Shown: positions 5,247-17,734 of the stretch, in pieces
Numbering within the stretch: position 1 is the stretch's first letter
How the letters are laid out: the number at the start of each line of letters is the position of its first letter
Position numbers and translations under genes: made by a program
Source of the DNA: Bacteroidales bacterium
GTDB taxonomy: Bacteria; Bacteroidota; Bacteroidia; Bacteroidales; UBA3824
Direction of reading: 5' to 3'
DNA length: 64,000 nucleotides
NCBI GenBank assembly: GCA_017960885.1
Contig: JAGCYI010000176.1
Coordinates: 27,047-91,046, forward strand
The notes under the pieces: model-generated
The model's database searches: none
What the model was told of the DNA's origin: nothing
Seen by the model: only the letters and a program-made list of their open reading frames with translations

Positions 5247-6161
5247 ATGAGTTTATTTAGTTTAAAATCTGCACTTAATTCTAATACAAACCCTAATGAG
5301 TTTGTGTTGTCTGACGAACTTATTCGTAAATTGCATGTCTTTTTATTGGATATGTTAGAAGATATAGTAAAGGTGCTTGAAAAACATCATCTTCGTTATT
5401 TTGTTGGAGGTGGTAGCTGTTTGGGAGCTATAAGGCATAAAGGTTTTATACCATGGGATGATGATTTGGATATTAATATGCCACGCGAAGATTATGATAA
5501 GTTCGCTTCTGTTTTTGAAACAGAACTAGGCGATAAATATGAGTTGAATGCGCCTAATTATAGTAGTGAAGTAATAAGTAGGTTCCCTAAGGTATTGGCT
5601 AAGAATACACGATATGCTGCTGCGGCATGGAATACTAAACCGCAGTTTGAAAAGGTTTTCATTGATATTTTCACAATGGAAAATGTTCCAGATAATAAGA
5701 TATCTCGCTTTTTTAAGGGCTGTTTCGTTAATTTTTTAGAATTTGTTGCCGGACAGGTTCTTTTATATGATTCTTTTAAGCACAATGATTCATCTATAGT
5801 GAAGAAAAAAATAGGGAAACTTAATTATGGAGTTAGATACCTTATCGGATTGTTGTTCTCTTTACGAGGTTATTCTAAATGGTGCAATTGTATAGATAAA
5901 TCGATTCGATATGAGAATAATAAATCGTTTTATGTGTGCTTTCCAACAGGTAGAAATCATTATTTTGGTGAAATTTTACCTCGTTCAATATTTTTTCCGT
6001 TGAAATCAGTACCTTTTGAAAATAGTTCTGTGTTGGTTCCTTGTCAGTTTCATAACTATTTGAAAAATTTGTACGGAGAAAATTATATGGAATTACCGCC
6101 ACCAGAAAAGCGAGAAAAACATTTTGTATCAATTATTGATTTGCCACAAGCAAATAATTAG
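5247..6161 (+). CDS. LicD-family phosphotransferase
   Basis: RYFVGGGSCLGAIRHKGFIPWDDDLDINMPREDYDKF matches the LicD nucleotidyltransferase-fold core, including the DxD. Confidence 0.8.
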   Translation: MSLFSLKSALNSNTNPNEFVLSDELIRKLHVFLLDMLEDIVKVLEKHHLRYFVGGGSCLGAIRHKGFIPWDDDLDINMPREDYDKFASVFETELGDKYELNAPNYSSEVISRFPKVLAKNTRYAAAAWNTKPQFEKVFIDIFTMENVPDNKISRFFKGCFVNFLEFVAGQVLLYDSFKHNDSSIVKKKIGKLNYGVRYLIGLLFSLRGYSKWCNCIDKSIRYENNKSFYVCFPTGRNHYFGEILPRSIFFPLKSVPFENSSVLVPCQFHNYLKNLYGENYMELPPPEKREKHFVSIIDLPQANN

Positions 6162-6184
6162 TGTGATAAGTTTTTTAATAGTAA

Positions 6185-7339
6185 ATGTCAATGAAATTGC
6201 GTAGAAGGTATATTTTTGGTATTATTTGCAATTTTTTTGTATTGCTATATTTGTTCTTGAATTTTGTAATTAGAGTTTTTGATAATTCTATTATTAGTCT
6301 TCGTCTATGTCTATTTTCTCTGCTTGTTTCTTGTGTGTGCTCATTTTTTTGTTATTCAAAAAAGAATTATTTATGCTTTTTGTATATTTTATTATTTATC
6401 GTTTCATGGTTTATAGAATTGATATTCAAGCCAGAATGGCAATATAGTTTCGACTATTTTGTTTATTCTGTGTCTTATATGTTGGTGGCTATGTTTTTAG
6501 TTCAGTGGAGTCAACAAGTATTTGCCTTGCGGGTGTTGTTTATTTTCGTGATGGTAAGTATTCTTGTGAAATTATTGTTGTTTGATACTCCTATACGAGA
6601 GTTTATGTTAGACGAGTCGTCTTATAATTTTATTAGTGTTTTAGCTTTGCTATATTTTGGATTGTATTGTCTTACGCTAATCAAAAATAATAAACCTCTT
6701 TCATTAAAAGATGGTTTTTTGTTTCTCGTTGTATGTTGCTTGGCTTACGGACGAGGTGGTATTATTTCGGCATTGTGTTTTTTAGGTCTCCTCTTAGTAT
6801 ATAAATTTTATAACGCACGGATAAGCGCCAATAAAAAAGTGTTAATTGGTTTTCTCGTGCTGTTGTCCATTATATTTTTTCATAGTCTGTTGCTTGATCG
6901 TTTAAGCGATTACGAAATATTTGGCAAGTTTAAGAAAATGGGGATGGAGAGTAACGGACGAGCTGATATTTGGCTTAAATTTATCAACAATTCATTTTCA
7001 AGTTTTAAAGATTTTATATTGGGTGCCAATCCAGCAAAAATATTTACCGAAGGTAACTTACATAATTCTTATTTGCAAATGTATGCCAATTTTGGTTTCG
7101 TTTTTTTTATTTCAAATGTATTTATTACTATTTTAATTCTTATCTATTATTCGCGAAAAAGAAGTAGAAATATTTGGCTTTTGATACTTTTTGTTACTTT
7201 TATTGTCAGGGCCTTGTTGGATAGAGTTTGTTTTAGGGGTCATTGCGAAATCCTATATTTTTATTTTATTTTTAATTTCTTTATTGATATATCAACAAAA
7301 AATAAAGTTGTTGATTGTAAATTATACAAATCATTGTAA
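6185..7339 (+). CDS. wzy: Wzy-like O-antigen/capsule polymerase (polytopic membrane protein)
   Basis: A 384-aa, very hydrophobic multi-helix protein with a larger loop around GMESNGRADIWLKF. It sits between glycosyltransferases and is very AT-rich. Confidence 0.55.
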   Translation: MSMKLRRRYIFGIICNFFVLLYLFLNFVIRVFDNSIISLRLCLFSLLVSCVCSFFCYSKKNYLCFLYILLFIVSWFIELIFKPEWQYSFDYFVYSVSYMLVAMFLVQWSQQVFALRVLFIFVMVSILVKLLLFDTPIREFMLDESSYNFISVLALLYFGLYCLTLIKNNKPLSLKDGFLFLVVCCLAYGRGGIISALCFLGLLLVYKFYNARISANKKVLIGFLVLLSIIFFHSLLLDRLSDYEIFGKFKKMGMESNGRADIWLKFINNSFSSFKDFILGANPAKIFTEGNLHNSYLQMYANFGFVFFISNVFITILILIYYSRKRSRNIWLLILFVTFIVRALLDRVCFRGHCEILYFYFIFNFFIDISTKNKVVDCKLYKSL

Positions 7340-7357
7340 AACTAGCATTGGTATCTT

Positions 7358-8485
7358 ATGTCATTAAAAGCACAAATATGTTATGTATGTACAACACCAT
7401 TTCAGATTATGAATGCTGTTTCTATGTGCGTTACCAATAAAGAGGTTGCCGATTTGTATATTGTTCCTCAATTTGCAGGAGCTGAATCCTATTTTAACAG
7501 AATTAAGGCGTTGAATGTGTTCCAAGTTGTGTCATTAATTAATGATGATTTTGTTCCTTATAAACGATTTTCGAATAAGATTCTCATTCATTTGTTATTA
7601 TTCTGGATTTATTTGAGAATTAAGAAGTTTGTTAAACCTATTTTGGTGCCTGATTCTGAATATAAAAGTATATTTATTTCATCAAAAGCATTAATAGGAA
7701 GATTAATATGTCTTTATCATATTCGTGCTAAATGTAATTCATCGTTTTTTTATTTTGATGATGGAGAAGGTAGTTATGATAATCCTAACTTATATTTGCC
7801 TCGTTTTTGGGATTCTTTTTTGAGAAAGCTCTTTTTCGGTAAAAGAGGTGTTGTATTAAGCCAAACAATGTATTTGTATTCGCCTGAATTACATAGTATT
7901 ATTAATCCATCCAGTACTTTAACTATTCATAAAATATCACCTTGGATTAACAATGATTATGTATTAAATATCATAAATTTTATTGCTGACTTTGATTCTC
8001 AAAAGCGAATTTCTGAAAATGTTATTTTGATAGATTCCATTGCAGATGAAACATTTGACTCAGAAAATTGTAAGTTATATAAACGAATGTGCCTAAAAGT
8101 TAATGAATTTTTTGGGAATGATATTATTTATAAAAAACATCCGCGAGATAAAACAACTTATGATGGTGCTAACATTAAAATTTATGAGTATTCGTCAATC
8201 CCATTTGAAGTTCTTTGTGCTAATATAGATATTTCCAACAAAGTGCTAATTGTGGCTGCTTCTACGGCTGTTTGCACTCCAAAGGTTTTGTTTAACGCTG
8301 AACCTTATGTTGTTTTGATGTATAAGTTTGTGAAATGTAATCAGCTTGCTGTTAAACAGGACGATTATTATCAGTCAATTAAGAATACATATAAGGATAA
8401 AAGTAGATTTTTAATTCCTGAATCAGAGCAAGATTTTGTAGATTGCTTGACTCGAATTAGAGCTGATATTTATGGTAAAGGATAA
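7358..8485 (+). CDS. GT52-like glycosyltransferase (candidate sialyl/Kdn-transferase)
   Basis: The N-terminus ICYVCTTPFQIMNAV resembles the GT52 opening. An FDDGEGS (D-D-G) motif lies at aa 134-136, ILIDSIADE follows, and KKHPRD (H-P) lies at aa 261-262. The spacing resembles the Neisseria Lst as recalled. Confidence 0.55.
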   Translation: MSLKAQICYVCTTPFQIMNAVSMCVTNKEVADLYIVPQFAGAESYFNRIKALNVFQVVSLINDDFVPYKRFSNKILIHLLLFWIYLRIKKFVKPILVPDSEYKSIFISSKALIGRLICLYHIRAKCNSSFFYFDDGEGSYDNPNLYLPRFWDSFLRKLFFGKRGVVLSQTMYLYSPELHSIINPSSTLTIHKISPWINNDYVLNIINFIADFDSQKRISENVILIDSIADETFDSENCKLYKRMCLKVNEFFGNDIIYKKHPRDKTTYDGANIKIYEYSSIPFEVLCANIDISNKVLIVAASTAVCTPKVLFNAEPYVVLMYKFVKCNQLAVKQDDYYQSIKNTYKDKSRFLIPESEQDFVDCLTRIRADIYGKG

Positions 8486-8575
8486 CTTATCATATAATTG
8501 CTATGGGGTCCTTGTTGAGCTAAGGTACCATTGTTACTGATTTTAATAAAAACTCTTTTTTCTTCATTTTTATCA

Positions 8576-9184
8576 ATGTATAAACATTTTGCCAAACGTA
8601 TATTGGATTTTTTGTTTTCTTTAATGTCTATATTGTTGATAGGTTGGATTATAGGCATTGTAGCATTATGGCTTCATTTCGCCAACAAAGGGGCGGGTGC
8701 TTTTTTCCTTCAATCTCGTCCTGGGAAAAATGGTAAAATATTTAAGGTCATCAAATTTAAAACTATGACCGACGAAAAAGATGAAAATGGCAATCTTTTG
8801 CCCGATGAAAAACGTCTTACAAAAATAGGGAAATTTATCCGATCAACATCAATTGATGAGCTACCTCAGATAATAAACGTTTTGAAAGGAGATATGTCGT
8901 TGATAGGCCCGCGACCATTATTAGTACAATATCTACCTTTATATACTAAGGAACAAGCACGAAGGCATGAAGTTCGACCTGGAATTACAGGCTGGGCTCA
9001 GTGTCATGGTCGTAATGCTATTTCATGGACACAAAAATTTGAATTGGATGTTTGGTATGTCGACAATATTTCCTTTATTGTGGATATTAAAATATTTTTT
9101 CTGACGATAAAAAAAGTTTTCATGCGTGAAGGTATTTCTCAGGAGGGAAATGCCACAATGGAATTTTTTAACGGACATAATTAG
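8576..9184 (+). CDS. small monotopic phosphoglycosyl transferase (PglC/WcfS-like bacterial sugar transferase)
   Basis: Motifs [40 protein letters not shown] and GITGWAQ. The ATG at 8576 is preferred over the TTG at 8531. Confidence 0.85.
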
Positions 9185-9187
9185 GAT

Positions 9188-9772
9188 ATGTATTTATATG
9201 GTGCAAGTGGTCATGCAAAAGTGATTATAGATATTCTGTTGGCATGTGGTATTTCTATTGATGGGTTGATTGATGATAATCCAAACATCAATTCTTTATT
9301 AACCTATCCAGTATATCATAATAAGTTAGATTTGTCTCCTATTATTGTTAGTGTTGGGAATAATTATGTTCGCAAATCTATTGTGGAAAAACTATTCGGA
9401 GAATTTGGTAAGGCTATTCATCCCTCTGCAATTGTCTCTCCTAATGCCTTTATCGATATAGGAACAGTTGTAATGCCAGGGGCTATTGTTAATTCTGGAA
9501 CCTCGATTGGAAAGCATTGTATTTTAAATACTGGTGTTTCTATCGACCATGAATGTGTTGTTGAAGATTATGTACACATTTCACCTCATGCTACTTTATG
9601 TGGCAATGTCAAGGTCGGAGAGGGTTCTTGGATAGGTGCAGGGGCTGTTGTTATTCAGGGTGTTGAAATAGGCAAGTGGAGTCAAATTGGTGCTGGTTCG
9701 GTGGTAACAAAAAATATCCCCGACAATGTACTCGCTTATGGTAATAATTGCAAGATAATCAAAAAGATATAA
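9188..9772 (+). CDS. PglD/NeuD-family sugar N-acetyltransferase (left-handed beta-helix)
   Basis: N-terminal Rossmann-like LYGASGHAKVIIDIL followed by hexapeptide repeats (GKHCILNTGVSIDHECVVEDYVHISPHATLCGNVKVGEGSWIGAGAVV). Confidence 0.8.
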   Translation: MYLYGASGHAKVIIDILLACGISIDGLIDDNPNINSLLTYPVYHNKLDLSPIIVSVGNNYVRKSIVEKLFGEFGKAIHPSAIVSPNAFIDIGTVVMPGAIVNSGTSIGKHCILNTGVSIDHECVVEDYVHISPHATLCGNVKVGEGSWIGAGAVVIQGVEIGKWSQIGAGSVVTKNIPDNVLAYGNNCKIIKKI

Positions 9773-9798
9773 TAGCTATCCTTCCTACGTATAAAGCA

Positions 9799-11328
9799 AT
9801 GGATAAATCGCAAAACAACACTAAGCGTTTAGCGAAAAACACATTATTGCTCTACTTCCGCCAAATCCTAATAATGCTGGTGTCGTTGTACACCGTTAGG
9901 GTGGTGTTGAAAGTACTTGGAGAGGAAGACTACGGTATTTATAACGTTGTGGCGGGTATTGTTACGATGTTCAGTTTTCTGACATCTACTATGGCTTCGG
10001 CAAGCCAACGATACTTAGCTGTGGACTTAACCACAGGCGATCTCACCAAACAAAAACAAACGTTCGGACTAATTTTATGGACATACATTTTGCTGATAAT
10101 TGCCACAGTAGTACTCGCTGAAAGCATTGCAGTGTGGTTTTTGAATGCAAAAATGACCATCCCTGACAATAGGCTGTATGCTGCAAATTGGGTGTTGCAG
10201 GCGGCTATACTGATGTTTGTTGTCAATATTATTGCCACGCCATATCTCTCTGCCGTAATTGCTCATGAAAAAATGGGTGTTTACGCATACGTGAGCATTT
10301 TTGATGCAGTATTAAAATTAGCAATAGTGTTCGTTTTGGAAGTTATGTCTTACGACAAACTAATACTTTACGCTGTTTTATTGTTAACTAGTTCAATTTT
10401 GGCAACTTCTTGTTATATATTATATTGTAGAAAGACATTTCCCGAATGTAAGGCAAATTTGTTTTACGACAAACAGCAAATGAAAGAAATGACCGCATTT
10501 GCCTGGTGGAATATGATTGGAACAGTTGCTAATCTTCTTAGAAGTCAAGGAATTAATGTATTACTGAATCTGTTTTTCAATCCTACAATCAATGCGGCAA
10601 GAGCAATTGCCTATCAAATAAACAATGCAATTATATCATTTTCAAATAATTTTTATACCGCAGTAAAACCTCAAATTATCAAGAGTTACGCTGCTGGTGA
10701 AAATGAGAGGATGATTCATTTGATTACGTCAAGTTCAAGGCTTGCGTTTTTCTTAGTTTTTATGTTGTCGCTACCAGTATATCTTAATATCGACTTTATG
10801 CTGAAACTCTGGCTCGAAAATCCGCCTGAGTATGCATGCCTGTTTTCCAAATTGGTGCTAATCAATATTTTACTCGAAGTTTTCAGTATGCCACTTGTAA
10901 CAGGATTGCAAGCAACGGGGAATATAAAAAGATATCAATCGGTAATATCAGTTATATATTTGCTCAATATTCCAATTTCGTATGTGTTGTTGAGATGCGG
11001 TTATCCGCCAGAAATAACGATGTACGTCAACATTGCTTTGGTGATGATTAGTTTCACGCCACGACTTCTGATATGCAAGAAATATTATTCGTTGTCTATA
11101 CAAGAGTATATGAAAAGCGTTTTACTCAAAACATTATTAGTCACAGCAATTTGTTATACAGCAAACTATTATTTGCTTAGATTGTTTGACGCTAATACTG
11201 TTGTAAATTTGTGCATTTCTTGTGTTGCGATTATTTTTGTTACAGGGTTTGTGATATTATTTATAGGGTTACAAAATGCTGAAAGGCAGTTAATTGCTAA
11301 TAAAATCAAATCTATAATTCATCGTTAG
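9799..11328 (+). CDS. wzx: Wzx-type oligosaccharide flippase (MOP superfamily)
   Basis: The opening RLAKNTLLLYFRQILIMLVSLYTVRVVLKVLGEEDYGIYNVV is typical of polysaccharide-biosynthesis flippases, followed by about 12 or more hydrophobic segments. The ATG at 9799 is preferred. Confidence 0.8.
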   Translation: MDKSQNNTKRLAKNTLLLYFRQILIMLVSLYTVRVVLKVLGEEDYGIYNVVAGIVTMFSFLTSTMASASQRYLAVDLTTGDLTKQKQTFGLILWTYILLIIATVVLAESIAVWFLNAKMTIPDNRLYAANWVLQAAILMFVVNIIATPYLSAVIAHEKMGVYAYVSIFDAVLKLAIVFVLEVMSYDKLILYAVLLLTSSILATSCYILYCRKTFPECKANLFYDKQQMKEMTAFAWWNMIGTVANLLRSQGINVLLNLFFNPTINAARAIAYQINNAIISFSNNFYTAVKPQIIKSYAAGENERMIHLITSSSRLAFFLVFMLSLPVYLNIDFMLKLWLENPPEYACLFSKLVLINILLEVFSMPLVTGLQATGNIKRYQSVISVIYLLNIPISYVLLRCGYPPEITMYVNIALVMISFTPRLLICKKYYSLSIQEYMKSVLLKTLLVTAICYTANYYLLRLFDANTVVNLCISCVAIIFVTGFVILFIGLQNAERQLIANKIKSIIHR

Positions 11329-11329
11329 A

Positions 11330-12502
11330 ATGGCCAATATTATTCGTTGTGCTTTGGGCAAAATCAAACGTAGAGCCAAAATGTATGTCCAAAGATATTA
11401 TGACAGATTCCCTTTTTTGATTAAAAGCCAGCCCAAAGGCGAAAAACGCGCAGTCCATATTTCTGCATTTTCATACGGTAATGCTGGAGATACATTGCTG
11501 CCTGTGGTTTTGCGTGACTTATTTAACGATACAATTGGTATTAAACAATGGCGCAGCGTGGATTTGCATGTGGAAGTCAGGAAATCTGATGTGAGATTTT
11601 ATAATAAAAAAGACTTCGTTGTAATTGGAGGTGGCGGATTATTTTTGAAAGATACAGGTGCAAATGACAATAGTGGCTGGCAATGGAATTGTAGTATTGA
11701 CAATTTAGCTAAAATCAATAAACCCATTATTGCTTTCGCAATTGGCTACAATAGATTCAGAGGTCAAGATGATTTTGAACCAATTTTCACTCAACATTTT
11801 AATCGTTTTGTTGAGCAAGTTAAGTTCATTGGCATTAGGAATCATGGCAGTATCGAAAAATTAAAAAAATACCTTAATTCTGATGCATTGAAAAACAAAC
11901 TGGTATATCAACCTTGCATGACTACTCTGATTTCCAAAATATATCCTCATTTGTACAATTACAGAGCTAAGGATAATTGTGTTGCTTTCAATTGTGCTTT
12001 TGACAGAGCTCAGTTGCGTTCTTCATCAGACCAATATTTACACGCCATAGCAAAAGTAGCAAAATCATTGTCCGAAAAAACTAAAATAAGGTTTTATTCA
12101 CATATTCATTCCGACACATTGGCTTTAAAATATTTTGATGAATACAAGGTGGATTATGAACTTGTTGAATTCAAAAACGTAGGTCAAATTGTTGAATGTT
12201 ATTCACAACCTAGGCTTGTAATTGGAATGAGAGGACATGCCCAAATGATTCCATTTGGATGCGGGACACCCATTCTGTCGATTATTTCTCACGACAAAAT
12301 GCAGTGGTTTCTTGATGATATTCACCATCCAGAATGGGGATGTGACGTTTTGGATAGTGATTTTGAAAACCAACTTATGCAAAAATCACATTCGCTTTTC
12401 GATAATTATGAACAATGTATAGATGATATTGAAGAAGCAAAAAAAATGCTTTGGTCTGTAACATTGGAAAATATGGCAAAAATTAAAGATATACTTAAAT
12501 AA
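11330..12502 (+). CDS. polysaccharide pyruvyl transferase family protein
   Basis: SAFSYGNAGDTLLPVVLRDLF and VIGGGGLF are the motifs of the CsaB/WcaK-type pyruvyl transferase family. Confidence 0.7.
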   Translation: MANIIRCALGKIKRRAKMYVQRYYDRFPFLIKSQPKGEKRAVHISAFSYGNAGDTLLPVVLRDLFNDTIGIKQWRSVDLHVEVRKSDVRFYNKKDFVVIGGGGLFLKDTGANDNSGWQWNCSIDNLAKINKPIIAFAIGYNRFRGQDDFEPIFTQHFNRFVEQVKFIGIRNHGSIEKLKKYLNSDALKNKLVYQPCMTTLISKIYPHLYNYRAKDNCVAFNCAFDRAQLRSSSDQYLHAIAKVAKSLSEKTKIRFYSHIHSDTLALKYFDEYKVDYELVEFKNVGQIVECYSQPRLVIGMRGHAQMIPFGCGTPILSIISHDKMQWFLDDIHHPEWGCDVLDSDFENQLMQKSHSLFDNYEQCIDDIEEAKKMLWSVTLENMAKIKDILK

Positions 12503-13374
12503 TGCAACCACCGAAAATAATAGCCGAAATAGGCTGTAACCACAAGGGCGACATGTCTGTCGCCAAGGAGATGATAATGACCGCGGCTACATATTGCAAA
12601 GCCGACATAGTAAAATTTCAAAAACGTTGCAACCGTGAATTGCTCACCCCAGAGGAGTACAACGCGCCGCATCCCCATCCCGAAAACTCTTACGGGAAGA
12701 CATATGGCGAACATCGCGAGTTTTTGGAGTTCGATTTGGAACAGCACCGACAACTCCAACAATGGTGCAATGAGTTTGGTATCGAATATTCCACTTCTGT
12801 ATGGGACTTGACATCTGCAAAGGAAATCTGCACGCTCAACCCAAGGATGATAAAAATTCCTTCCGCATGCAATCTCAATAAACCGCTTTTAGAGTATCTG
12901 TGCCACAATTTCGGAGGAGAAATACACGTTTCGTTCGGTATGACATCCAAAGAAGAGGAAGAAGAAATTGTTTCTTTCTTCGAGGCTCAAAAACGCAATC
13001 AAGATCTTGTGATTTACAATTGCACTTCGGGCTATCCCGTGCCGTTTGAGGACATCTGTCTTTTGGACATCAAACGTCTTTACGAAAAGTTTGAACACAG
13101 GGTCAAGGCAATTGGCTTTTCGGGACACCATCTTGGCATTGCTGTGGATTCGGCGGCAGTAGCATTGGGCGCAACGTTCATCGAACGTCATTACACTCTC
13201 GACCGCACTTGGAAAGGTACCGACCACGCCGCATCTCTTGAGCCCGACGGTGTCCGCAAACTTGCTCGCGACTGTCGTGCAGTTGCCAAGGCTCTGACCT
13301 ACAAACAAGAGGACATCCTTGATATTGAAAAGGTTCAGCGTAACAAATTGAAAAAAAATCAAGTGAAATGGTAA
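12502..13374 (+). CDS. NeuB-family nonulosonic acid (phosphate) synthase, short form without the C-terminal SAF domain
   Basis: KIIAEIGCNHKGDMSVAKEMIMTAATYCKADIVKFQK is the NeuB TIM-barrel opening. HHLG and ERHYTLD are also present. The protein is only 290 aa. Its start overlaps the upstream stop (TAATG). Confidence 0.8.
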   Translation: MQPPKIIAEIGCNHKGDMSVAKEMIMTAATYCKADIVKFQKRCNRELLTPEEYNAPHPHPENSYGKTYGEHREFLEFDLEQHRQLQQWCNEFGIEYSTSVWDLTSAKEICTLNPRMIKIPSACNLNKPLLEYLCHNFGGEIHVSFGMTSKEEEEEIVSFFEAQKRNQDLVIYNCTSGYPVPFEDICLLDIKRLYEKFEHRVKAIGFSGHHLGIAVDSAAVALGATFIERHYTLDRTWKGTDHAASLEPDGVRKLARDCRAVAKALTYKQEDILDIEKVQRNKLKKNQVKW

Positions 13375-13401
13375 TAATTTGGTCAATTAACTAAAAAATA
13401 T

Positions 13402-13432
13402 TTTGCCGATAAAACAAAAAGCATTAGATTTG
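13402..13432 (+). promoter_or_regulatory. consensus Bacteroidetes promoter (TTTG-N19-TAgaTTTG) internal to the capsule operon
   Basis: TTTG lies at 13402-13405 and TAGATTTG at 13425-13432. The spacing fits the published TTTG/TAnnTTTG architecture, and the element sits directly upstream of the Panacea-domain gene. Confidence 0.5.
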
Positions 13433-13458
13433 CAGTGAACAATCAAAATGAAACTACT

Positions 13459-14010
13459 ATGTCGTACACTAGACTTTTTAAACAGGACGTAACAATTCAG
13501 GCTATTCTGTATATCTTACAGAAAATGGGTGGCGTGTGCGATATTCATAAATGTCACAAAATCCTATATTTTTCCGACAACGAACATTTGTCGCGTTTTG
13601 GTAGGTCTATCACAGGTGATTCATACATTAAAATGGAATGGGGGCCAGTTCCAACGTGTGTTTATGACTTGTTGAAGGCTGTTAGGGGCGATAGTTACTT
13701 TGCAGCGCAGGTTGAAAACATAAGAAATAATATGTTTCATTTTGTTAATCAAAAAGACATTCAATCAACATCTGCTCCCGATATGGACTATTTGTCACAA
13801 TCAGAGGTAGATATTCTTGATAAATACATATCACAGTTTAAAGACCTTACCTTTCAACAAGTTTCGGAATTATCGCATGGTTTTGCGTGGAGCAATACCA
13901 AACGATACGGAGAAATTAGTGTTCGCGACCGTTTGACAGAACTTGGTGATAATGACGGTTACATTGATTTCATCGAAGAGCAATTAAAAGCGGAGGAGGC
14001 CTTTGCATAA
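13459..14010 (+). CDS. Panacea (DUF4065/SocA-like) domain antitoxin candidate
   Basis: KCHKILYFSDNEHLSRFGRSITGDSYIKMEWGPVPTCVYDLL fits the Panacea core pattern (K-x-x-K-L-L-Y ... G-x-P-I ... W-x-x-G-P-V). ATG 13459 is chosen because GTG 13435 lies only about 3 nt from the -7 box. Confidence 0.6.
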   Translation: MSYTRLFKQDVTIQAILYILQKMGGVCDIHKCHKILYFSDNEHLSRFGRSITGDSYIKMEWGPVPTCVYDLLKAVRGDSYFAAQVENIRNNMFHFVNQKDIQSTSAPDMDYLSQSEVDILDKYISQFKDLTFQQVSELSHGFAWSNTKRYGEISVRDRLTELGDNDGYIDFIEEQLKAEEAFA

Positions 14011-14426
14011 TGGAAGTTCCTTTGTCTGTGATATCATCTTCAGTGGTTAGAGGAGCAATTCTTCTTTCAGACTTTGAAGGGATTGACCATAGAAAGTTTT
14101 TCGTTGTGATGGGAATAAGCAAGGATAAAGTATGTGGATTCTTTTTTATAAACTCTAATGTTCATCCATTGATATTTAATAAACAAGAACTCCTTGATTT
14201 ACAATATCCTTTAAAACATTCCGATTACACGTTTCTTAAATATGATTCGTTTCTCTGTGCTTCTACAGTGATAGAGCGAAATCTTAGCGATATTGCAGAC
14301 GATATCAGTCGCGGTGGCACATCCATTATTGGCAAATTAAAAGATGAGCATATATCAGACGTATTGCAAATGGTAAATTCTTCTGTTGCAATTAGCAATC
14401 GACATAAGAAATTGTATTTTCAGTAG
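14010..14426 (+). CDS. uncharacterised 138-aa protein, candidate toxin partner of the Panacea antitoxin
   Basis: Its start overlaps the upstream stop by 1 nt (TAATG), which indicates translational coupling. It has no TM segment. A weak MazF/PemK-like pattern (RGAILLSDFEG...RKFFVVMG...FFFINS) is only a guess. Confidence 0.4.
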   Translation: MEVPLSVISSSVVRGAILLSDFEGIDHRKFFVVMGISKDKVCGFFFINSNVHPLIFNKQELLDLQYPLKHSDYTFLKYDSFLCASTVIERNLSDIADDISRGGTSIIGKLKDEHISDVLQMVNSSVAISNRHKKLYFQ

Positions 14427-14452
14427 TATTATACTCTTATATAATAATATAC

Positions 14453-15610
14453 ATGGTAACTGCATTTATCCCTGTTCGTGGTGGCAGTAAGTCAATTCCT
14501 CTCAAAAACATAAAGCCATTTTGCGGCAAGCCGTTGGTTTGTTGGAACATTGAGGCTTTGGAAAATTGTGCGGAAGTGGACAAAATTATTGTTGCCACAG
14601 ATTCCGACGAAATCGAAACAACCGTCGGTAAATTCAATTATAAGAAAACTAAAATCTACCGCCGATCCAAAGAAAACGCATCTGATACGGCAAGTACAGA
14701 AAGTGTAATGCTTGAATATATTAAAGCCGTACAAATGTCTGATGATGAAATATTTATGTTGGTTCAAGCAACCTCACCGCTTACACAGACCGCAGATTTT
14801 TCGGGCGGATTAACGATGTATTCTTCGGGACAATACGATAGTATTTTAACTTGTGTACGCAATTACCGTTTCTTTTGGAATACAGACGGGACAAGCCAAA
14901 ATTATGATTACAAAAACCGTCCACGTCGTCAGAATTTTGACGGAATGTTGATGGAAAACGGAGCATTCTACATCAACACCGTTAAAAACATTAAGACATC
15001 AGGCAACCGTTTGAACGGCAAGATTGGCATTTACGAAATGCCCGAATACACCTCCGCCGAAATCGACGAACCTGACGACTGGATTATCCTCGAAAATTTG
15101 ATGCGCCGTCATATCTTATCTAAAAACCGACCGTCTAAACCTGAAATAAAACTCTTTTTGAGCGACGTTGACGGCACCCTCACCGATGGAGGAATGTATT
15201 ATTCCGAATCCGGTGACGAACTCAAAAAATACAACACCCGCGATGGAATGGGCTTTCAAATGCTTCGTGAACGAGGCATCAAAACTGGAATCATCACTTC
15301 CGAGAATATGGCGCTCAACAAACGCCGTTTTGAGAAACTTAAAGTTGATTTCCTCATTCAAGGCAAACGCAACGGCGGCAAACTCGAAGCGGCATTGGAA
15401 ATATGTTCGCAACTAAACATCAGCTTGGAGAATGTTGCCTTTATTGGTGATGATGTCAATGATGTTGAGTTGCTGTCTAAGGTAGGATTTGCAGCGTGTC
15501 CGGCCGATGCTTGTGAAGAGGTAAAGTCTGTTCCTGCAATTGAGGTGATGACACGGAAAGGCGGCGAAGGTTGTGTGAGAGAAATGGTTACATTGGTAAA
15601 TAAAATGTAA
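14453..15610 (+). CDS. bifunctional CMP-nonulosonate synthetase (N-terminal) / KdsC-type HAD phosphatase (C-terminal)
   Basis: The N-terminus AFIPVRGGSKSIPLKNIKPFCGKPLV is the acylneuraminate cytidylyltransferase signature. The C-terminal half has intact HAD motifs: DVDGTLTDGGMYY, ITSE and GDDVNDVELL. Confidence 0.85.
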   Translation: MVTAFIPVRGGSKSIPLKNIKPFCGKPLVCWNIEALENCAEVDKIIVATDSDEIETTVGKFNYKKTKIYRRSKENASDTASTESVMLEYIKAVQMSDDEIFMLVQATSPLTQTADFSGGLTMYSSGQYDSILTCVRNYRFFWNTDGTSQNYDYKNRPRRQNFDGMLMENGAFYINTVKNIKTSGNRLNGKIGIYEMPEYTSAEIDEPDDWIILENLMRRHILSKNRPSKPEIKLFLSDVDGTLTDGGMYYSESGDELKKYNTRDGMGFQMLRERGIKTGIITSENMALNKRRFEKLKVDFLIQGKRNGGKLEAALEICSQLNISLENVAFIGDDVNDVELLSKVGFAACPADACEEVKSVPAIEVMTRKGGEGCVREMVTLVNKM

Positions 15611-15638: not shown

Positions 15639-16397
15639 ATGGAAAAGAAATTTGAAGATTTTATTGTTTCGGATCAAACAAAAACAATAGAAGCTCTTAT
15701 CAAAATTAACAATAATAAACAAGGATTTGTTATTGTAATAGATAATTATGATAAGGTTGTAGGAGTACTTACTGATGGAGATGTTCGCAGATCTATTATA
15801 AAAGAACACTCCCTCAATGATAATATTTCGTCGATTTTTACTCGTGATGCGGTTATAATTTCGATTAGTGATGGATTTGAAGCCGTAATAGAATCATTTA
15901 AAAAACAATCAATAAAGTTTATTCCCATTGTTGATGATCAATGCAGATTAGTAAATATTATTACCAAGGGTCAGATGCATGCATTATTATTGCAAGATAT
16001 CCAAGCCGATTTGTCGTACGATTTCTTTTCTCTTGATACTAATGTTGTGGATCATGAAATATATCTAAGACCTTGGGGGTATTATAAAACAACTGTTTTA
16101 AACGATTATTTTCAAACCAAAATAATCAGTGTTAAACCACAAGGTCAGTTGAGTCTTCAATCACATAATCATAGAGAAGAACATTGGATAGTGGCTCATG
16201 GAGAGGGTCTAGTTCAATTAGACAAATCAATAATTAAGGTAAGATGTGGCAGTAATATTTTTATTCCATTAGGATGTAAGCATCGACTTACCAACATATC
16301 AGATAATGAGTCGTTGATAATTACCGAGGTTCAAATTGGTGATTATTTTGGCGAAGATGACATTATCAGATATGAAGATATTTATGGCAGATGCTAA
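15639..16397 (+). CDS. CBS-pair domain fused to a type II phosphomannose-isomerase cupin
   Basis: The N-terminus FVIVIDNYDKVVGVLTDGDVRR is CBS-like. The C-terminus RPWGYYKTTVL...VKPQGQLSLQSHNHREEHWIVAHGEG matches the ManC C-terminal PMI cupin. Confidence 0.7.
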   Translation: MEKKFEDFIVSDQTKTIEALIKINNNKQGFVIVIDNYDKVVGVLTDGDVRRSIIKEHSLNDNISSIFTRDAVIISISDGFEAVIESFKKQSIKFIPIVDDQCRLVNIITKGQMHALLLQDIQADLSYDFFSLDTNVVDHEIYLRPWGYYKTTVLNDYFQTKIISVKPQGQLSLQSHNHREEHWIVAHGEGLVQLDKSIIKVRCGSNIFIPLGCKHRLTNISDNESLIITEVQIGDYFGEDDIIRYEDIYGRC

Positions 16398-16492: not shown

Positions 16493-17734
16493 ATGCAAAA
16501 TCGCATCTATCTCTGCCTTGCCCACATGGGAGGCAGTGAAATGAAGTACATTCAGGAGGCTTTCGACACTAACTGGGTTGTGCCGCTTGGCCCTAATGTC
16601 AATGCCTTTGAAACCGACTTGGAAGTTTTTGTCGGTCAGAACAAAAAAGTTGTTGCGCTTACTACCGGCACTGCGGCGGTGCATTTAGCTTTGTTAGCTT
16701 GTGGAGTGCAACCCGGCGACGAGGTTATTGTGCAGTCGTTCACATTCTGCGCTTCTTCGCACCCTATAACATATTTGGGCGCTACACCTGTGTTTGTGGA
16801 TTCCGAACCCGACACTTGGAATATGGATCCTGTGCTTTTGAAGCAGGCTATTGTGGATCGAATTGCCAAAACCGGACGCAAACCAAAGGCTATTGTGCCT
16901 GTGTATCTCTATGGTATGCCTGCCAAAATTAATGAAATAATGGCAGTGGCTCGCGAGTTCGACATTCCTGTGGTGGAAGATGCTGCCGAAGGATTTGGAA
17001 GTTTGTACAACGGACAAGTTTGCGGCACATTTGGCAAATATGGTGTGCTGAGTTTTAATGGCAACAAGATGATTACCACATCTGGTGGTGGCGCTTTGGT
17101 GTGTCCCGACGAAAATTCCAAAAACGAGATTATGTTTTATGCAACGCAGGCTCGCGAGGCGTATCCGTATTATCAGCACGAAAAAATCGGATACAATTAT
17201 CGTATGAGCAACATTTGCGCTGGTATCGGTCGCGGTCAGATGGAGATTGTCAACGAGCATATCAACCATCACAAGCATCTCACTGCCTTGTACAAAAAAC
17301 TCTTGTCGGTAGTTGACGGTATCACCCTTCATGAAAATCCGTCTCCTGAAATCGACAGCAATTACTGGCTCAATACCATAATCCTTGATAATAATCTTCG
17401 TGTAAAAGGTGAAGATAAAGCCTATACACAGGCAGTTCAAGGTGCTGTTGGTGGTGCGGCAGGTGTTACTCATACCGCAAGGTCGTTGCATACCGATTTT
17501 GAACCCAACAACAATGTTGAGGCTATGCGCATGGCTTTAGACAAAGCCAACATCGAGTCGCGTCCGCTTTGGAAGCCTATGCACTTGCAGCCAGTATATA
17601 AGAATAATCCCGCTTATACCAATGGCGTGAGCGCTTCCTTGTTTAAATGCGGTCTTTGCCTACCATCGGGACCAATGGTGAGCGATGCCGATGTTGAGTA
17701 TATTGTGGATACTATGAAGAACGCGATTATTTAG
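16493..17734 (+). CDS. DegT/DnrJ/EryC1/StrS-family PLP-dependent sugar aminotransferase (PglE/WcfR-like)
   Basis: The opening RIYLCLAHMGGSEMKYIQEAFDTNWVVPLGPNV is typical of this family. FNGNKMITTSGGGAL contains the PLP lysine. Confidence 0.85.
   Translation: MQNRIYLCLAHMGGSEMKYIQEAFDTNWVVPLGPNVNAFETDLEVFVGQNKKVVALTTGTAAVHLALLACGVQPGDEVIVQSFTFCASSHPITYLGATPVFVDSEPDTWNMDPVLLKQAIVDRIAKTGRKPKAIVPVYLYGMPAKINEIMAVAREFDIPVVEDAAEGFGSLYNGQVCGTFGKYGVLSFNGNKMITTSGGGALVCPDENSKNEIMFYATQAREAYPYYQHEKIGYNYRMSNICAGIGRGQMEIVNEHINHHKHLTALYKKLLSVVDGITLHENPSPEIDSNYWLNTIILDNNLRVKGEDKAYTQAVQGAVGGAAGVTHTARSLHTDFEPNNNVEAMRMALDKANIESRPLWKPMHLQPVYKNNPAYTNGVSASLFKCGLCLPSGPMVSDADVEYIVDTMKNAII

Follow-up and report, generated by a model that had tools for sequence, protein, structure and literature searches.

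Known Kdn pathways and the locus under study

A route to 2-keto-3-deoxynononic acid (Kdn) that passes through Kdn-9-phosphate (Kdn-9-P) is already known from Bacteroides thetaiotaomicron and Prymnesium parvum (PMC6200933). The part of that source which cites Wang et al. 2008 gives the B. thetaiotaomicron pathway as the Kdn-9-P synthase BT1714, the Kdn-9-P phosphatase BT1713 and the CMP-Kdn synthetase BT1715. Here we describe a locus in a 64,000-nucleotide stretch of a gut-type Bacteroidales genome (the window) that encodes a NeuB-family synthase, a CMP-nonulosonate synthetase (CMAS) fused to a phosphatase domain of the haloacid dehalogenase (HAD) type, and a CBS-domain phosphomannose isomerase (PMI). 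The locus resembles that of B. thetaiotaomicron in combining a NeuB-family synthase, a KdsC-type C0 HAD phosphatase and a cytidylyltransferase without the UDP-GlcNAc 2-epimerase NeuC. It differs in that the phosphatase, which stands alone in B. thetaiotaomicron, is fused to the synthetase, and in having a dedicated CBS-PMI gene.

The window lies on contig C26 of a metagenome-assembled genome of 3.99 Mb and 84.66% completeness, and all searches of the genome reported below refer to this assembly. The open reading frames (ORFs) lie where the original prediction had placed them. From sequence comparison we infer that the locus carries a self-contained CMP-Kdn cassette starting from mannose-6-phosphate (Man-6-P), and we give this reading, its substrates and product included, a probability of roughly 0.7. 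The genes of the cassette region, in the order NeuB, toxin–antitoxin pair, CMAS–HAD fusion and CBS-PMI, and the sites discussed are as follows (aa, amino acids).

12502..13374, + strand: NeuB-family synthase without SAF domain, predicted Kdn-9-P synthase, 290 aa (Pfam NeuB)
12685..12732, + strand: loop motif NSYGKTYGEHREFLEF, aa 62-77 of the synthase, common to the BT1714 type and other phosphatase-coupled NeuBs
12860-12868: site equivalent to Glu134 of Neisseria meningitidis NeuB, aa 121-123 of the synthase, SAC
13435..14426, + strand: SocA/Panacea antitoxin-like gene (Pfam SocA_Panacea, 84.2 bits) and a 138-aa partner ORF, between synthase and fusion
14453-15610, + strand: CMAS–HAD fusion, 385 aa
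14453..15127, + strand: CMP-nonulosonate synthetase domain, predicted CMP-Kdn synthetase, fusion aa 1-225 (codon of R186 at 15008-15010)
15137..15610, + strand: KdsC-type C0 HAD phosphatase domain, predicted Kdn-9-P phosphatase, fusion aa 229-385
15639..16397, + strand: CBS pair and type II PMI cupin, predicted dedicated Man-6-P supply, 252 aa

In the proposed pathway the CBS-PMI protein would convert fructose-6-phosphate to Man-6-P, which the synthase would condense with phosphoenolpyruvate (PEP) to give Kdn-9-P. The C-terminal HAD domain of the fusion would then take off the 9-phosphate and the N-terminal domain would join Kdn and CTP to CMP-Kdn, to be used by a capsule glycosyltransferase, possibly a GT52-like protein encoded upstream. 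The inputs of the cassette, fructose-6-phosphate or Man-6-P, PEP and CTP, fit Kdn; they do not fit N-acetylneuraminic acid (Neu5Ac), legionaminic acid (Leg) or pseudaminic acid (Pse), because these all need amino-sugar precursors. The phosphorylated Kdn-type route that the original prediction had put forward is supported by domain content, by the clade of the synthase and its conserved neighbourhood, by intact catalytic residues and substrate residues of the HAD domain, by a specificity residue of the synthetase, by the recurrence of the cassette and by the failure to find NeuC or NanE in the genome; the product would be Kdn.

As a stand-in for the B. thetaiotaomicron locus we used a contig of an uncultured Bacteroides (L022), obtained with a degenerate-pattern scan for the BT1713 gene that did not return B. 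thetaiotaomicron itself. Its HAD protein (164 aa) is identical over 164/164 residues to the BT1713 crystal sequence 3e81. Adjoining it are a 346-aa NeuB with a SAF domain and then a 249-aa cytidylyltransferase, which were taken as the equivalents of BT1714 and BT1715 and are called the BT1714 and BT1715 types below.

The synthase ends with its barrel and carries the loop of phosphatase-coupled NeuBs

The Pfam NeuB domain (PF03102) covers residues 26-268 of the synthase with 238.7 bits, and no Pfam match to a SAF domain was found in the 290-aa protein. In the alignment with the 349-aa NeuB of N. meningitidis it covers residues 19-284 of that protein and has 12 residues left after the barrel, so that there is no room for an antifreeze-like domain of about 65 aa. 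This shortness is native, since a length of 290-291 aa is shared by 107 of 121 close homologues. The original prediction, which described a 290-aa NeuB-like enzyme ending where its TIM barrel ends, was right on this point. It had also treated the missing SAF domain as a sign of a Kdn-9-P synthase, and that part does not hold: the BT1714-type enzyme, which differs from the window synthase in carrying this domain, is encoded beside the HAD that is 100% identical to BT1713, and NeuBs without SAF are a known broad class (PMC8208679). Loss of the SAF domain was therefore rejected as a marker of Kdn synthesis.

The metal- and PEP-binding residues are kept (EIGCNH, KFQK, FSGHH and ERH). With TIGR03569, the model for the classical Neu5Ac synthase NeuB, the protein reaches 203.7 bits, well short of the cut-off of 399.65, and it is also under the cut-off of the Pse synthase equivalog. 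Compared with the classical NeuC/NeuB/NeuA and Leg pathways, the window has the NeuB TIM barrel with its EIG.NH, KFQ, SGH and ERH residues and a CTP_transf_3 synthetase in common, and differs in the absence of NeuC and SAF, in the loop motif and in the clade of its synthase. A feature search with the synthase returned only its own family.

The loop motif NSYGKTYGEHREFLEF is present in 113 of the 121 close homologues. In the alignment, NeuBs encoded next to a HAD gene show NS[FY]GKTYGEHR.[FY]LE[FL] at this place, whereas those next to NeuC carry unrelated sequence and the Leptospira chain 6ncs has a gap; the window synthase and the BT1714 type share GKTYGEHR. In human NanS, a loop favours the phosphorylated substrate (PMC8208679). 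By our own equation, this loop would be the GKTYGEHR-type motif. At the position of Glu134 of N. meningitidis NeuB (SGE), the clade of the window has Ala-Cys or Ala-Ile and the BT1714 clade Arg-Asp. Judged from the alignment, this part of the active site is remodelled in the phosphatase-coupled synthases.

In some close homologues of the short synthase (P0008, P0009 and P0055; 380-383 aa), a hexapeptide-repeat acetyltransferase domain is joined to the NeuB domain (PF03102 with PF00132).

NeuBs beside a phosphatase gene form a clade separate from those beside NeuC

In a sample of 150 genomes from the same order we looked for NeuB, KdsC-type HAD and Epimerase_2, drew 40 NeuB loci and scored their neighbours. 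A KdsC-type HAD within 3 kb and no NeuC were found at 15/40 loci. NeuC was adjacent at 18/40, one of which also had a HAD gene, and the remaining 7/40, among them one locus truncated at the end of its contig, had neither. From the NeuBs of these 40 loci, of the loci found through BT1713 and of three cassette loci we computed a maximum-likelihood tree. It separated the NeuBs of HAD-only loci from the NeuBs of all NeuC loci with an SH-like approximate likelihood ratio (SH-aLRT) support of 99. The loci found through BT1713 carry a HAD by construction; the 40 loci of the order sample do not, yet they show the same association.

Both the window NeuB and the BT1714 type fall on the HAD side of the tree. 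The window NeuB belongs to a fully supported subclade with the NeuBs of Treponema and Paraprevotella and two other short NeuBs. This subclade lies beside other lineages without SAF and has the SAF-bearing BT1714 clade as its sister group.

The HAD domain appears to be an active nonulosonate-9-phosphate phosphatase

Residues 232-383 of the fusion match the KdsC-type HAD model TIGR01670 with 134.3 bits, above its cut-off of 106.95, and both the DVDGTLTDG and the GDDVND motif are present. The cytidylyltransferase fused to a KdsC-type HAD with these intact motifs was thus correctly recognized in the original prediction. The domain is 49% identical to BT1713. Asp residues D238 and D240 of the nucleophile motif and D333 and D334 of GDD are invariant in 121 fused homologues. 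BT1713 residues E56, R64 and K67 align with E284, R292 and K295 of the fusion; the first two are invariant in the 121 homologues and K295 is found in 120/121. Equivalents of the three BT1713 residues occur in all HADs next to NeuB, fused or free. The BT1713 mutants in PDB entries 4hgq (E56A) and 4hgr (E56A/K67A) mark residues that were probed for specificity. Because the catalytic Asp residues and E284, R292 and K295 are near-invariant, the HAD domain looks catalytically competent and of the nonulosonate-9-phosphate type.

The same residues bear on its relation to the route to 3-deoxy-D-manno-octulosonic acid (Kdo). The window pathway and KdsA/KdsC/KdsB have the same logic, in which PEP and a sugar phosphate give a phospho-ulosonate that is dephosphorylated and activated with CMP, and they share the HAD fold. 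They differ in that the window synthase is of the NeuB family and not DAHP_synth_1, and in a predicted product of nine carbons, not eight. Where the window HAD has Glu (E56 of BT1713), the two KdsC chains that were aligned have Arg, and at position 67 they have Ser or Asp in place of Lys. The fused HAD as the housekeeping KdsC was considered and is unlikely; a same-genus genome without the cassette (G140) has KdsC-type matches of its own. The incomplete window genome yielded no canonical KdsC that scored above the cut-off. The sole other KdsC-like match (G000:C10:25278-25754; L003 1375-2100) is a divergent 241-aa HAD with 52.6 bits.

Comparison with vertebrate CMAS raises the question of whether the domain is catalytic at all. 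Mouse CMAS structures match the fusion in the order the original prediction had noted, 1qwj at residues 3-218 and 3ewi at residues 230-379, so the CMAS-then-HAD arrangement is common to both, as is the use of a phosphorylated intermediate by vertebrate NANS and CMAS. The window synthetase also scores higher against mouse CMAS than against bacterial NeuA proteins (see below). The two systems differ in that vertebrates use N-acetylmannosamine-6-phosphate (ManNAc-6-P) and in that NANS has an antifreeze-like/SAF domain, which the window synthase lacks. The HAD domain of vertebrate CMAS has been reported as inactive, whereas the catalytic residues of the window family are invariant. Given the shared two-domain architecture, the window HAD might likewise serve for oligomerisation without catalysis, which has been reported of vertebrate CMAS, with a synthase that uses free mannose. 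We regard this as very unlikely, since 120-121 of 121 relatives keep the same amino acids at the four catalytic positions and at the BT1713 substrate residues, and since the link of the NeuB clade to this HAD is tight for fused and separately encoded forms alike. An active phosphatase that serves the Kdn route remains our reading of the domain.

The synthetase domain keeps an arginine of Kdn-specific enzymes

CTP_transf_3 covers residues 4-140 of the fusion with 85.6 bits. Among solved relatives the synthetase domain matches best the structure 9t4z (150.8 bits), followed by mouse CMAS (111.5), Vibrio cholerae NeuA (73.7) and N. meningitidis NeuA (39.5); to the BT1715 type it is essentially unrelated (E 0.023). 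The protein in 9t4z is PpNeuA of P. parvum, a CMP-Kdn synthetase that is specific for Kdn (PMC12934254). In that enzyme Arg196 lies in the C5 pocket and gates Kdn against Neu5Ac; it is reported in Kdn-specific enzymes only, and its replacement in R196L or R196A switches the preference to Neu5Ac (PMC12934254). In the HMMER alignment R186 of the fusion falls on this Arg196, and it is invariant in 121/121 homologues. Synthetases encoded beside NeuC in our sample do not have Arg at this position. The two proteins differ at the C-terminus, where PpNeuA has a transmembrane segment and the window protein its HAD domain.

A degenerate relative was seen in another genome (L030, G005:C1, 4872-6011, minus strand). 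It is encoded beside a short NeuB of 71% identity and has a degenerate synthetase N-terminus in which ALILAGESRITSLNDIQ replaces FIPVRGGSKSIPLKNIK, and Ile in place of R186. The motifs of its HAD domain are intact.

The cassette recurs, in some loci with a phosphomannose isomerase

The CBS-PMI protein matches MannoseP_isomer (PF01050) with 106.1 bits and CBS with 43.1 bits, and about 2,300 homologues have the same architecture. The motifs SLQSHNHREEHW and HRLTN are conserved in the window protein and three homologues. Its cupin shows SLQ.H..R.E.W and H..N, which we take to be the catalytic motif of the type II PMI family. In 3/3 loci fetched through CBS-PMI homologues, one of which bears the name of Blautia hydrogenotrophica, the gene is flanked by a short NeuB on one side and the fusion on the other. 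These loci encode a 289-aa NeuB with 69-73% identity to that of the window and a fusion of 388-390 aa which in each case has the Arg. Since it takes this position in three unrelated loci, the CBS-PMI gene is part of the cassette. A separate type I PMI is encoded elsewhere in the window genome, and the cupin PMI is thus an additional, pathway-linked copy.

Short NeuB and fusion also stand side by side or overlap in Treponema brennaborense (L026), Paraprevotella clara (L028) and the genomes G005 and G008, with no NeuC found near the cassette in any of the four. A GT52 gene follows the cassette of P. clara. In relatives the synthase and fusion genes are adjacent, overlapping or parted only by CBS-PMI (with an acyltransferase gene in addition in one locus). 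None of the relatives examined has a toxin–antitoxin pair between them, and the pair in the window is therefore an insertion.

The window genome contains one NeuB, and a second was not found. The original prediction was also correct in noting the absence of NeuC: no match to Epimerase_2 (NeuC/WecB) was obtained anywhere in the genome, and NanE was not found either.

Weighing the CMP-Kdn reading

Several points weigh against a Kdn product. The synthase shares just 34% identity with the BT1714 type and its branch in the tree is long, and with Cys or Ile at the Glu134 equivalent in its clade and Asp in the BT1714 type, the active sites differ. The best NCBIfam match of the HAD domain is NF058599, the KDN-9-P phosphatase of Bacteroides, with 161.2 bits, below the equivalog cut-off of 180. 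BT1713 makes only a modest distinction between Kdn-9-P and Neu5Ac-9-P, and the HAD domain does not separate the two. A locus of the NeuC type (L050) also encodes an intact HAD of the BT1713 type, next to a synthetase without the Arg; for this reason the HAD alone is no proof of Kdn. The fusion, like 121/121 homologues, has Lys13. The corresponding Lys (Lys16 of N. meningitidis) is invariant in Neu5Ac-specific and lacking in Kdn-specific enzymes, PpNeuA having Val23 (PMC12934254). In the literature we found no assayed enzyme of the variant that combines a synthase without SAF and a CMAS–HAD fusion. At 84.66% completeness, finally, a gene not found in the genome is no proof of its absence.

The retained Lys favours a mammalian-type Neu5Ac route, in which ManNAc-6-P would give Neu5Ac-9-P, to be dephosphorylated and converted to CMP-Neu5Ac. 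The same can be said of the database names (N-acetylneuraminate synthase and N-acylneuraminate cytidylyltransferase), of the domain order shared with vertebrate CMAS and of the acceptance of Neu5Ac-9-P by BT1713-type phosphatases. We nevertheless consider this route quite unlikely. Neither Epimerase_2 nor NanE was found in the genome as a source of ManNAc or ManNAc-6-P, the cassette in relatives occurs alone or with PMI and never with NeuC, and the invariant R186 is the counterpart of the residue that excludes Neu5Ac in PpNeuA (PMC12934254).

The long branch of the synthase clade and its own active-site substitutions would also suit a different sugar phosphate being condensed with PEP, and the pyruvyl transferase and acyltransferase genes that recur beside the cassette would suit further modification of the product; in either case a Kdn-like but distinct ulosonic acid would result. 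The co-located PMI points to Man-6-P, and the Arg of the synthetase suits a 5-hydroxyl, as in Kdn (PMC12934254), which makes such a product unlikely in our view. CMP-Kdn made from Man-6-P is thus the reading that we keep.

The capsule locus and its amino-sugar genes

The window starts with a capsule operon of the Bacteroidales style, which comprises a NusG-like UpxY, glycosyltransferases, an IspD/SDR/LicD set, a Bac_transf gene, a PglD-like acetyltransferase, a flippase and a pyruvyl transferase. Four genes of this region are referred to below.

7358..8485, + strand: GT52-like protein, tentative candidate for the Kdn transferase, 375 aa (Pfam GT52, E 1.3e-4, under the cut-off)
9188-9772: PglD-like acetyltransferase, in the capsule locus
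11330-12502: polysaccharide pyruvyl transferase, adjoining the cassette
16493-17734: LegC-like aminotransferase

The aminotransferase has the LegC family TIGR04181 as its best NCBIfam match, at 356.7 bits and so below the cut-off of 420. Together with the PglD-like acetyltransferase it could be taken to indicate a Leg- or Pse-type pathway. We find this exceedingly unlikely: no hydrolysing 2-epimerase was found in the genome, the window NeuB falls outside the NeuC-associated clade, a 9-phosphatase has no role in such routes, and the aminotransferase, acetyltransferase and Bac_transf genes rather suit a priming amino-sugar triad. On these grounds the aminotransferase was rejected as a member of the nonulosonate route.

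The GT52-like protein shows local similarity, centred on HPR[DE]K, to the product of the GT52 gene that follows the P. clara cassette (E 6e-6).

Novelty and implications

The CMAS–HAD fusion is not unusual. It is widespread in several phyla and abundant in Bacteroidota, Bacillota, Actinomycetota and Chloroflexota, with its domains in the same order as in chordate CMAS. In the literature we found no characterised bacterial CMAS–phosphatase fusion, and no published description of one conserved module made of a synthase without SAF, an optional CBS-PMI and a synthetase fused to a predicted active phosphatase. The argument that this module probably makes Kdn, drawn from sequence features, is new to us.

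This class of cassette accounts for thousands of database entries from host-associated bacteria, Bacteroides, Paraprevotella, Treponema and Blautia among them, and the proteins are named as N-acetylneuraminate enzymes. Because Kdn is not the self sugar of humans, predictions of 'sialylation' and molecular mimicry by gut bacteria would not hold for this class if its members make Kdn. With at most three genes, the cassette would be a compact means of making CMP-Kdn out of central metabolites. It also gives a bacterial counterpart with which vertebrate CMP-sialic acid synthetase and its unexplained phosphatase-like domain can be compared.

A further idea, which we hold to be doubtful, is that the eukaryotic sialic acid pathway had an ancestor whose surviving form in prokaryotes is this cassette. 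On that view, vertebrate CMAS would have kept, as its catalytically dead C-terminal domain, a relic of a bifunctional Kdn-9-P phosphatase/CMP-Kdn synthetase, and the sialic acid ancestral to that lineage would be Kdn, not Neu5Ac. If this were true, many genes of gut bacteria that are annotated for Neu5Ac would actually make Kdn.

Further observations

The NeuB–NeuC type locus L050 (G105:C8, about 6006-10420) encodes its CMAS without the Kdn Arg and its apparently intact BT1713-type HAD in overlapping frames, which may reflect a frameshift in a fused gene. This type of HAD is therefore not confined to cassettes that lack NeuC. A scan for promoters of the sigma-70 type, which was not designed for Bacteroidota promoters, gave counts in the window not above those in shuffled sequence.

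The capsule locus looks mosaic. The Bac_transf and PglD-like acetyltransferase genes (window 8531-9772) lie 6.7 kb upstream of the DegT/LegC-like aminotransferase gene (16493-17734). Between these two blocks are the flippase, the pyruvyl transferase and the whole predicted Kdn cassette, and within this interval the GC content shifts abruptly, from about 0.33 to 0.40.

A polysaccharide pyruvyl transferase gene lies near the cassette in four otherwise different loci: the window, L028 (4633-5922, accompanied by an FrhB-like gene), L070 (3651-4832) and L071 (11412-12620). Kdn or a neighbouring sugar may therefore be pyruvylated. Acyltransferase_3 genes stand beside the cassette in L070 and L072.

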